From Escherichia coli (GTDB taxonomy: Bacteria > Pseudomonadota > Gammaproteobacteria > Enterobacterales > Enterobacteriaceae), in the NCBI RefSeq assembly GCF_048403405.1, contig NZ_CP183129.1: a stretch of 64,000 nucleotides of DNA; one strand, written 5' to 3'. Each line of letters opens with the position of its first letter. Position 1 is the stretch's first letter. Positions 27,001 through 30,000 of this stretch are shown in pieces. A program made the position numbers.

Positions 27001-30000
27001 TGGCAGCAGAATGACGGTAATGACAACGGGGCTTATGTCGATACCTGGATCCAGTACGGATGGTTTAATAATGCCGTTAATGGTGAAAAACTGGCTGCGG
27101 AGTCCTGGAAATCCCGTGGATTTACCGGTTCAGTGGAAGCGGGTTATACCTTTAAAGCCGGCGAATTTATCGGTAGCCAGGGTAGCCACTATGACTGGTA
27201 TATTCAGCCGCAGTCCCAGATCACGTGGATGAATGTAAGAGCCAGTGAGCATACGGAGAAGAATGGCACGAAAGTTCAGCTCAGCGGAGACGGTAATATC
27301 CAGAGTCGTCTGGGCGTCAGAACTTACCTGAAAGGTAAGAGTGCGTCTGATGATAATAAGGCGCATCAGTTTGAGCCATTTGTGGAAGTTAACTGGATCC
27401 ATAATACACGGAGCTGGGGTGTCAAAATGGATAATACGGCACTCAGTCAGGACGGAGCTACAAATATTGCTGAAGTCAAAACGGGTGTTCAGGGTAAATT
27501 GTCAGATAACCTGAATGTCTGGGGCAATGTTGGTGTTCAGGCTGGCGATAAAGGGTACAGTGATGCCCAGGCAATGCTGGGTATTAAATATATATTCTAA
27601 TCACACAGTGGCAGGAGGGGACCTCCTGCCACCTCAGGGTTGTCATAATGAGTTCTGTAATGAAATTTTCTGTTGTTAATGCAGTAGTGCTGCTGTTGCT
27701 GATTGTACTTACTGGTGTTTTTTATATGAAAAAGTCAAAAGAAATTGCAGTTGTTAATATCGATGCTATTTATAATCAGTCTACCGCCGGAGACATGGCC
27801 AGAAAGCATCTGAATGAGGTTAAGAGTATTCTTGAAAAAGGATATGAGGATGCGCAAAAAGCATTCGCAGATAACGCGAATAAAGAGGCGCTGCTTCTTG
27901 ATGCCAGACAAAAACTGGAACGACAATATGTTATTGAGGAAAATAGCGCAAAAAAGGTGTTATCCCGTGCGATAGATAATGCCATAGGCACATGGAGAAA
28001 AGACAATCCTAAAAATATTGCCGTATTGTCTTCAGGTGTTGTGCTTGCGCATAACGAGTCAGCTGATATCACCAAAGAAGTCATGACTCTGGTTGAAAAA
28101 GAAAATCTGGTTTTTAATAAATTACCCAAAGTGGAAGTGCACAATAAGAATGAAGAGAAACCAGAACAAAGTAAGTAATCACTAGATTCTGACGATTTCC
28201 AGAAGGGAGATTCAGCAGGCCAGCATCTGTAATCATTCAGATTTGCTGGCTTGCTGCTAAATATGGTTGCTAAGAAAAATAGCAGACCAGTAATTTATTC
28301 AGATTACTGAATATAATAATTTTTCAGGAACGGTTATGCTGAAGGTAGTATGTTTAATCGACACAATTATTTGCTGTGTCTAATATGAGGTGACATTTTT
28401 ATGATCACTGACCAGCAAGACTGACCCGTATTGATTAGCCTGATTATTGGCAACTTATTGGGGTAGTCATTTTGACATCGAATGGGGGAGGTTTCCAGTT
28501 AAGTTCACGAATGCATGATGATTTGCGTTCACATATCGAAGTACTGGTTGACTATACTAAGGATTTTAAGATAACTCACTGATTGTAAGTGGGTTATTGC
28601 GAGGGGGATGATAAATGGTGTCCCCTGCAGACATCTACTTGACGAGGCAGGGGATTGATTGGAATGGTGTTTTTTAGATGTGAGAAATATTTTACCCGCT
28701 ATTTTACCCATTGGCGCGGCTTAAGAGCTTATTTTTGAATTCACAATGGTCACGATATAACCATCTTGCTCGCCCGTGGATAACTTTGGCTTTAGGCAGG
28801 TCGCCGGACTTAATCCGGTCGTAGATGAAGGTTTTACCGAAGCCAGTATCAGCCATGATGAATTTCAAATCAACCAGTGAATCAGGTTGTAGTTCGTGTT
28901 GCATGAGTGCTATCTCCGAATAGGGAATCGAACCTGCAAATCAGGAAATAAAAAACCGCCATCAGGCGGCTTGGTGTTCTTTCAGTTCTTCAATTCGAAT
29001 GTTGGTTACGTCTTATTCGATACGCACTCCTGGTATTTCGCCTTTTGATATTGCTAAGTCATAAATTTGCGCGGCACTATATCCATCCCGCATCCATGAA
29101 TCTAAGGCGCGAACAGCCTCGCTACGCTTTTTATCTTCTCTCTCATTTTTGATATCAACGAGGACATCAACGCAATTAAGGCAAATGTGGATTTTGTCCT
29201 TACATTCGATCATGGCGGCTTTACCATGATTTCCGCCACACAGTGAGCATAAATCTTCAGGGTCTGTCTGGTATTTCTGTAACGTTAGATGGTTGAATGT
29301 TGAACAGGCCATAATCATCTCCATAAAACAAAACTCGCCGTAGCGAGTTCAGATAAAAGAAATCCCCGCGAGTGCGAGGATTGTTATTCATTGCTGATAT
29401 TCACCTTTATCGCGAACACCTTTACCGGTTTATCACCGAAGTGCGGATGTGTGATTGTCTTGATTTCATATCCACCATACGGAACATCAATTCTGCGACT
29501 GGAATCGTCGCGCTTCGGATATCCCTTTGTGATAATCAGGCGGTCATATTCCCGGAACATAATTCGCTTATTCCAGTAGTCATTACACAGGCGATACTCT
29601 TCCGTTTTCTCCCCGCGAATCATGGCATCGAAGTATTCACCTTTGACGGCAAGTTGCAGGTTTGCCACGGTTAACCTCCTGCGGCGGTTCCGGTAGCCGC
29701 ATCCAGTGTGACGGCTCACATACCCCCTCAACACCATTCATGTAAAAGAATTGAAATAACCCTTTACCTTTGTGAAACCCTACCATCTGCTCTTTAGTGT
29801 CTGAGCAATAAACCAAAACATCTTCTTCGTTTGGCATTCGATCACTACAGCTTATCCAACCATCAGGAGCTACCGGAGAGTTGACACCGGGAATATTTTC
29901 CGGAATATTTTGTTGTGCGTTTTGTGGTTGTTCGGATTTACCCTGAAGCATGGCGGCGCGGCAGGCGTTCCAGCCAGCTGTTCGCCCAAGCGCGTAAACT

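Follow-up and report, generated by a model that had tools for sequence, protein, structure and literature searches.

In type V secretion, helper proteins encoded with their clients are known from trimeric adhesins, and a 2021 review names only two of them, SadB and TpgA (PMC8151025). SadB is an inner-membrane trimeric lipoprotein of Salmonella that aids the trimeric autotransporter SadA; SadA bears an extended signal peptide region (ESPR), which published work connects with slow release from the inner membrane, and depends on SadB, which improves display without being strictly necessary (PMC8151025). In Acinetobacter sp. Tol 5, TpgA is a periplasmic protein co-transcribed downstream of AtaA, and its loss lowers surface display (PMC8151025; PMC12523085). 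A 2026 preprint on trimeric adhesin neighbourhoods deems further helper proteins unlikely, and neither it nor a 2022 review of Skp-like proteins mentions anything like an autotransporter-linked Skp. Here we analyse a gene for a 176-residue Skp/OmpH-like protein that directly follows the giant autotransporter gene upaE in a 64,000-nucleotide (nt) stretch of Escherichia coli DNA (contig NZ_CP183129.1, assembly GCF_048403405.1), called the window below. Its Skp-type fold, its membership in the OmpH/Skp family and the recurring position of its relatives behind type V secretion genes are established by the analysis. With somewhat better than even confidence, we take its product to be an accessory, membrane-tethered, Skp-like holdase for autotransporters that is expressed by transcriptional read-through from the upstream gene.

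This locus resembles the described systems in several ways. As SadB is, the Skp-like protein is predicted to be periplasmic and held at the inner membrane, and its gene is grouped in a unit with that of a type V adhesin bearing an ESPR. SadB, however, serves a type Vc protein, whereas the Skp-like gene mostly lies behind type Va genes, and the tether of the Skp-like family would be a helix, or a lipid in relatives. TpgA shares the arrangement of a periplasmic protein encoded downstream of a type V adhesin but is a peptidoglycan-binding, OmpA-type protein. Homology to either helper was not detected: Pfam shows OmpH only, fold matches are exclusively of Skp type, and the 50 PDB matches listed for the model include no structure of SadB.

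Two further comparisons concern mode of action rather than gene order. PpiD and YfgM are inner-membrane-anchored periplasmic chaperones at SecYEG, encoded by housekeeping genes without linkage to client genes. What they would share with the Skp-like protein is the proposed principle of an N-terminally anchored chaperone that meets secretory proteins at the Sec exit, although their folds are not known to be related. SkpA, a component of the extended translocon of type 9 secretion (8GL8), is among the top fold matches and is likewise a protein of Skp fold dedicated to a single secretion system; it differs in showing 10% identity, in serving another secretion system in another phylum, and in being part of an outer-membrane complex instead of being tethered to the inner membrane.

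Fold, family and predicted membrane anchor

The Skp-like gene and the elements discussed in this section are as follows.

27648-28178, plus strand: Skp/OmpH-like gene, 176 residues, ATG start; an open reading frame annotated in RefSeq as 'OmpH family outer membrane protein' (WP_000100046.1)
27636-27639, plus strand: Shine-Dalgarno-like AGGG, 8 nt before the ATG, as we read the sequence
27660-27725, plus strand: hydrophobic helix, residues 5-26 (22 residues), probable N-terminal inner-membrane anchor, helix from the structural model and topology predicted
27738-28097, plus strand: Skp-type core, residues 31-150, with two strands, a helical hairpin (46-72 and 79-119) and a helix (142-150), from the model, Foldseek and the profile
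28113-28133, plus strand: FNKLPKV, residues 156-162, the family-specific C-terminal F..LP.V motif, followed by a charged tail, from alignments

A sequence-only reading of this DNA had placed a 176-residue open reading frame at these positions, 48 base pairs (bp) after the stop of a 2637-residue autotransporter. Both statements hold: RefSeq gives the two coding sequences identical limits, and the last stop-codon base of upaE is 27600, which leaves a 47-nt spacer. The gene is under purifying selection, with ratios of nonsynonymous to synonymous substitution rates (dN/dS) of 0.13-0.38 in five comparisons that include CFT073, a phage-plasmid copy, Salmonella and a metagenomic copy.

The same reading had called the product 'Skp/OmpH-like', a description borne out through the family and the fold rather than by the protein's own profile match. 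Taken alone, the protein matches Pfam OmpH (PF03938) in two weak stretches, with independent E-values (i-E) of 1.2e-3 and 0.096, so that a profile search with the query by itself is marginal. NCBIfam gave only sub-threshold noise (RseP, SctR), and a single-sequence search of the PDB did not find Skp and returned only a chance helical match to a nuclease. A Pfam match to DUF1993 (i-E 7e-4) was set aside as another chance helical match, seen at E≤1e-3 in 1 of 132 relatives. A word-indexed protein search placed close relatives solely in Escherichia and Salmonella diarizonae, and the clade alignment found no relative in species-representative genomes. When a profile of these close relatives was scored against 1.84 billion representatives, 218 clusters were found at E≤1e-3, and 132 relatives found with the clade profile make up the family alignment. 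PF03938 is matched by 91 of the 132 at E≤1e-3 (best 2.5e-14), and the 132-member profile finds solved OmpH/Skp chains in the PDB at E-values between 6e-7 and 2e-3 (9yju, 6e-7; 9nhx; 4kqt; 1sg2, 1e-3; 1u2m, 2e-3).

The AlphaFold2 model computed from the family alignment is confident, with a predicted local distance difference test score (pLDDT) of 93.4, and consists of strands 32-36 and 123-128 and helices 46-72, 79-119 and 142-150. It shows the defining Skp arrangement, in which N- and C-terminal strands form a beta core into which a long helical hairpin is inserted. In a Foldseek search of the PDB, matches 1-10 are all of Skp type (1sg2, 1u2m, the type 9 secretion SkpA 8gl8 and CC_1914, 4kqt), with probabilities of 0.99-1.00; nothing credible follows, the remaining matches being no better than E 1.8. 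A 98%-identical UniProt entry in AFDB already carries the automatic name 'Chaperone protein Skp'. Because the family profile matches and the fold agree, membership in the OmpH/Skp family is sound, and this annotation is already present in databases.

Nevertheless, the gene is a paralogue and not the orthologue of housekeeping skp, as its location, its presence in 252 of 5426 complete E. coli genomes and a mature isoelectric point (pI) of 7.9 indicate. The two proteins share a small beta core with a long alpha-helical hairpin and a mature size of ~145-150 residues, and the IAVVN of the Skp-like protein's N-terminal strand corresponds to IAIVN in Skp. Housekeeping skp sits in the bamA-skp-lpxD cluster, whereas the Skp-like gene sits between upaE and the argW site; identity is ~16-20%, and the N-terminal helix of the Skp-like protein looks uncleaved. 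Alignment to solved OmpH chains requires gaps of 12 and 7 residues in the hairpin, which leaves arms ~19 residues shorter. Matches of the solved Skp/OmpH chains end at position 147-149 of the 177-position profile, mostly at or next to the chain end, so the F..LP.V motif and the charged tail are an addition relative to Skp; Pro160 within this motif is at least 90% conserved in the 132 sequences. Skp itself is soluble and strongly basic, with a pI of ~9.5.

The N-terminus of the Skp-like protein, MSSVMKFSVVNAVVLLLLIVLTGVFYMKKSKE, is modelled as a single 22-residue helix (residues 5-26), contains no Ala-X-Ala-type (small-X-small) cleavage site and is followed directly by a conserved YMKKSKE. Among close relatives in the UpaE-linked clade, both the length of this helix (~20 residues) and the YMKK after it are conserved. 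One relative, P0029, was called from an internal methionine, and the reading frame upstream of that start gives back a comparable N-terminal helix. Because no cleavage motif is found and because helix length and YMKK are conserved, the N-terminus, judging from the sequence and the model, probably serves as a signal anchor and not as a signal peptide that is cleaved off. The word 'secreted' in the sequence-only reading is thus probably wrong, and 'membrane-anchored' would describe the protein better. Met27 (27726-27728), which belongs to the YMKK motif just past the helix, is invariant in 7 of 7 clade members down to 42% identity. It is also where the gene caller started P0029; an internal start there would yield an anchor-less form, and no convincing ribosome-binding site was seen for it.

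Clear signal peptides or lipoboxes are present in most relatives and place the domain of those proteins in the periplasm. A lipobox is present in 67 of the 132 aligned relatives, and 27 of these 67 have Asp at the +2 position, a count to be read with the caution that the +2 Asp rule is one for Enterobacterales and that the host taxa of most lipobox-bearing relatives are unknown. In Enterobacterales, Asp at this position of a lipoprotein is an inner-membrane retention signal. Membrane attachment thus seems, from sequence features, to be a family trait, with a helix in the UpaE-linked clade and a lipobox in about half of the aligned relatives. Family members from Desulfovibrionaceae and Synergistetes could be Skp proteins of the ordinary kind.

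Linkage to type V secretion genes

In 12 of the 15 informative contexts, down to ~25% identity of the Skp-like protein, the gene immediately upstream and on the same strand is one for type V secretion. These neighbourhoods were sampled protein by protein across the identity range and form a small sample without phylogenetic correction; one further context, at a contig edge, is not counted among the 15. The upstream passengers are of at least seven unrelated kinds and include UpaE-like, AidA/IcsA-like, SPATE-like and BigA-like autotransporters as well as one trimeric adhesin. Position beside a type V gene and in the same direction is therefore found across divergent loci, listed here with our locus labels where they are used, and chance or hitch-hiking is an unlikely cause.

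E. coli, upaE locus: type V gene directly upstream, same strand
E. coli A41 (L003, NZ_CP028735.1): second chromosomal copy, with regulator, autotransporter (frameshifted) and Skp-like gene, beside a type VI secretion system cluster
Salmonella enterica diarizonae: invertase, GerE regulator, 2632-residue autotransporter (ESPR, BigA_3rd, PATR, AC_1 and Autotransporter domains), Skp-like gene
P1-like phage-plasmids (L017, L019-L025; IncY): PapI/FaeA, PapB, 2641-residue autotransporter, Skp-like gene, GerE regulator
Two metagenomic copies, 42% and 51% identity: preceded by UpaE-like proteins with a GIKYTF end
Yersinia ruckeri plasmids (L010, L018), ~30% identity: preceded by a PATR/AC_1 autotransporter on one and by SPATE-like S6 peptidase fragments on the other
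26%-identical lipoprotein: 48 nt behind a 2244-residue ESPR autotransporter
28%-identical relative: 9 nt behind a 2092-residue protein with BigA_beta and Autotransporter domains
Klebsiella aerogenes relative: behind an AidA/IcsA-like autotransporter
Metagenomic contig SRR12532585_13619 (L015), ~25% identity: YadA-type trimeric adhesin, BamE/OmpA (TpgA-like) protein, Skp-like gene

Several of these loci deserve comment. In the operon of L015, a known kind of helper (TpgA-like, as taken here) is paired with the candidate kind, and because the TpgA-like and Skp-like genes stand side by side they are separate components. The P1-like phage-plasmids, from E. coli and Escherichia sp., carry the UpaE-like autotransporter and a 77%-identical Skp-like gene as cargo, and a scan of viral contigs found this version only. 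There the pair lies beside PapI/FaeA and PapB-type regulators and not beside an invertase switch, which gives two regulatory set-ups for the same pair. The A41 copy is also near another autotransporter gene and an EAL-domain gene, with neither ipuA nor ipuB in the stretch shown. Both Y. ruckeri loci have a SapC-family gene after the pair. Frameshifts affect both autotransporters and one of the Skp-like genes, and the whole module seems to be in joint decay.

The ipuS-controlled unit and its intercistronic stem-loop

The window DNA is E. coli, and several complete genomes, including that of strain TUM14771, match the region at 100% identity. The gene order is dsdC, ipuB, ipuA, the ipuS spacer, ipuR, upaE, the Skp-like gene and the argW site, which identifies the phase-variable ipuB-ipuA-ipuS-ipuR-upaE locus of E. 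coli.

16778-17347, minus strand: ipuB, tyrosine DNA invertase, 189 residues; RefSeq 'tyrosine-type DNA invertase IpuB' in the 100%-identical TUM14771
18095-18724, plus strand: ipuA, tyrosine DNA invertase, full-length form, 209 residues; open reading frame, annotated IpuA
18725-19041: ipuA-ipuR spacer, 317 bp, with most of the 260-bp invertible promoter element ipuS (element per PMC6083910)
19042-19662, plus strand: ipuR, LuxR/GerE-type regulator, first gene of the unit, 206 residues; open reading frame, annotated HTH (helix-turn-helix) regulator
19687-27600, plus strand: upaE, classical (type Va) autotransporter adhesin, 2637 residues; RefSeq 'phase-variable autotransporter adhesin UpaE'

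The N-terminus of UpaE (MNKIYKVIWN...VVSEL) is an ESPR, and its C-terminus (...GIKYIF) is a classical autotransporter end; the Salmonella counterpart of ipuR has a GerE domain. The Skp-like gene is present in CFT073 and Nissle 1917, and its number across the complete E. coli genomes nearly equals the 243 in which the 5' part of ipuR/upaE was found. At the same site MG1655 (K-12) has argW, then the CPS-53 prophage, then dsdC, and none of ipuB, ipuA, ipuR, upaE or the Skp-like gene is there.

The ipuA-ipuR spacer is 98% identical to, and collinear with, the CFT073 reference spacer, and full-length ipuA goes together with ipuS in the OFF state (PMC6083910). By the criteria of that work, window positions 18095-19041, with full-length ipuA and the collinear spacer, show the OFF orientation. 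In this sequenced state the ipuR-upaE unit would be silent, and presumably the Skp-like gene with it.

Two stem-loops bear on how far this unit extends.

27608-27632, plus strand: stem-loop with 11 perfect pairs and a 3-nt loop, GC-rich, without a U-tract (GTGGCAGGAGG-GGA-CCTCCTGCCAC), from folding
28213-28256, plus strand: strong stem-loop 35 nt after the stop codon of the Skp-like gene, candidate end of the transcription unit, from folding

The sequence-only reading had seen no terminator between the two genes. In one sense this stands: a consensus scan calls no intrinsic terminator in the 47-nt spacer, and no U-tract follows the stem. What it overlooked is the perfect 11-bp stem-loop itself, which lies in a 50-nt stretch that folds at -24 kcal/mol (z -3.6). 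The element occurs only once in the window and matches nothing in Rfam, so a repetitive extragenic palindrome (REP)-like repeat or a known RNA family was discarded as its identity. Several loci have a stem-loop that begins 5-10 nt past the autotransporter stop codon, with five different stems and in no case a U-tract thereafter.

E. coli, Salmonella and phage-plasmid: GUGGCAGGAGG type
L004: GUGUGGUAGGG
L008: GUUGCCGGAGA
L029: ACCUUCCC
K. aerogenes: GCCCCC-UUCG-GGGGGC, read by eye and not folded

In a crude alignment of five sequences, 4 of 12 predicted stem pairs show changes on both sides. Spacers range from 9 to 57 nt where the start is well defined, and the stem-loop is absent from loci with spacers of 9-24 nt. 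On this sequence evidence we take the stem-loop to be a conserved intercistronic RNA element. By analogy with the hairpins of fimbrial operons, it would most likely either halt part of transcription or stabilise the 3' end, and so leave more autotransporter message than helper message. Minimum-free-energy folds also contain a possible 5-bp pairing between the upaE stop-codon region and the Shine-Dalgarno region; it is weak, includes two G-U pairs and is not relied on. The downstream stem-loop lies in a 131-nt stretch that folds at -45 kcal/mol (z -5.2); it too is without a U-tract and is not called by the terminator scan.

A different account of expression is that the stem-loop at 27608-27632 ends the ipuR-upaE transcript and that the Skp-like gene has its own promoter inside the 3' end of upaE. 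The strength and conservation of the stem-loop would fit such an arrangement, as would a description in the literature of two genes only. The 47-nt spacer leaves no room for a promoter, but a weak sigma-70-like site (9 of 12 matches) lies at 27328-27357, within the 3' end of upaE. However, promoter-like sites are no more frequent here than in shuffled sequence (5 found versus 3.8 expected), none of the five versions of the stem is followed by a U-tract, and some relatives lie 9-24 nt behind the upstream gene with no hairpin between. We judge independent expression improbable; it would in any case concern expression alone and leave a functional link to the autotransporter intact.

Other features of the window touch the neighbourhood of the unit. 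Although the original RefSeq record of CFT073 (NC_004431.1) and that of A41 flag upaE as 'frameshifted', the gene is intact in the window (2637 residues), and a newer CFT073 assembly annotates it as intact as well; the flag may reflect sequencing error or slippage in repeats. From 28616 to at least 36000 the window consists of lambdoid prophage DNA (homologues of RecT, Ea22-like, DUF551, Gp157 and antiterminator N proteins), which begins exactly at the position of the tRNA-Arg gene argW in reference strains. No tRNA-Arg was detected at 27000-30000, and no integrase-sized open reading frame adjoins the prophage junction. Two tRNA genes (Asn, Thr) at 44971-45126 may be phage-borne.

A proposed accessory holdase for UpaE

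How might a tethered Skp paralogue serve the autotransporter encoded before it? We propose that the Skp-like protein is a divergent Skp paralogue held at the inner membrane by its uncleaved N-terminal helix, with the Skp-like domain in the periplasm. Its gene would be the third of the phase-variable ipuR-upaE unit, transcribed from the ipuS promoter, and read-through of the conserved stem-loop probably expresses it at a level below that of upaE. The protein would probably act as a trimer, as Skp does. As a membrane-proximal holdase, it could receive the 271-kDa ESPR-bearing UpaE chain near the exit of the Sec translocon, keep the chain unfolded, protected and export-competent, and then hand it over to the general route of SurA and the beta-barrel assembly machinery (BAM). 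By analogy, its working mode would be like that of SadB or PpiD, yet it would be a member of the Skp family. As an accessory factor, it would raise yield or lower envelope stress and would not be an obligatory part of secretion. From the features described above we infer that the domain is periplasmic and tethered to the membrane, that the protein forms trimers, that its gene is co-transcribed with upaE and that it acts on UpaE as a chaperone.

The restriction to an accessory role comes from published work on UpaE. The plasmid pUpaE carries upaE alone, its reverse primer ending at the stop codon, and the K-12 strain MS427 with this plasmid has a 271-kDa protein at its surface, which mediates biofilm formation and matrix adhesion (PMC6083910). 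Since K-12 has no copy of the module and UpaE is functional on its surface, the Skp-like protein is not required, at least on overexpression, and is at most an efficiency or quality-control helper. The 'dedicated periplasmic chaperone for a giant autotransporter' that the sequence-only reading raised therefore keeps the support of the gene order, in 12 of 15 contexts, and is contradicted in any essential form by surface display in K-12.

This dispensability in K-12 is the first of several points that weigh against the proposed holdase. Both papers on ipuS treat the unit as two genes: in Battaglioli et al. (2018) ipuS drives 'a two-gene operon', with no mention of the Skp-like gene (PMC6083910), a follow-up by quantitative reverse-transcription PCR (RT-qPCR) measured only ipuR, upaE, dsdC and dsdX (PMC6458436), and the literature searched holds no measurement of the Skp-like gene. 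Transcription could end at the 11-bp stem-loop, or the stem-loop might at the least uncouple the Skp-like gene from upaE. The KKSK after the N-terminal helix is more positive than the preceding segment, which has one Lys, so that the positive-inside rule would favour the opposite topology. Finally, the hairpin arms are ~19 residues shorter than in solved OmpH chains, the mature pI is near-neutral, the protein's own Pfam match is marginal, and 3 of the 15 informative contexts have no adjoining type V gene.

Some of these points would suit a surplus Skp paralogue of general purpose that is carried along with the island and buffers outer-membrane protein folding generally, without a particular connection to UpaE. 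Both fold and family belong to a general chaperone, UpaE does without the protein in K-12, and, as noted, the Desulfovibrionaceae and Synergistetes members could be of the housekeeping type. Hitch-hiking is, however, hard to square with a position behind at least seven kinds of type V gene on chromosomes, plasmids and phage-plasmids, and the predicted membrane tether and the short arms differ from housekeeping Skp; we regard this explanation as unlikely. We also give little credence to a non-chaperone periplasmic partner, either a TpgA-like anchor or spacer on the assembled autotransporter or a membrane sensor that reports export to the LuxR/GerE regulator: the F..LP.V motif and charged tail without Skp counterpart, the GerE-type regulators that accompany the pair in several loci and the Skp-like gene that follows a TpgA-like gene in one operon speak for such a role, but the protein has no domain besides the Skp fold and no similarity to known anchors or sensors, and the regulator is missing from many linked loci.

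The tethered-holdase proposal also has a broader form. Besides SadB and TpgA, tethered, short-armed Skp-like proteins could constitute another, third class of dedicated helpers in type V secretion, and the first to serve type Va; they would be encoded directly behind their clients, and the conserved stem-loop between the genes would set the ratio of helper to client. We advance this generalization tentatively, as a possibility that we rate somewhat short of even.

In open-access papers and preprints we did not find the Skp-like gene, or any Skp/OmpH gene linked to an autotransporter; locus tags c2394-c2396, guessed for the unit, belong to other genes. The OmpH/Skp annotation is thus already known, whereas the literature searched seems to contain no description of the conserved link with type V secretion genes, of the probable membrane tether or of the intercistronic stem-loop. 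By the usual account, classical autotransporters depend only on general periplasmic chaperones (SurA, Skp, DegP), BAM and TAM (translocation and assembly module). If the proposal is correct, a Skp paralogue that recurs behind large autotransporter genes would be an added component of this pathway, and the published 'two-gene' ipuS-controlled unit of uropathogenic E. coli would become one of three genes. One small gene in CFT073 or Nissle 1917 would then offer a simple genetic handle. More broadly, such a helper could explain the poor heterologous display of giant adhesins and would be relevant to surface-display engineering.

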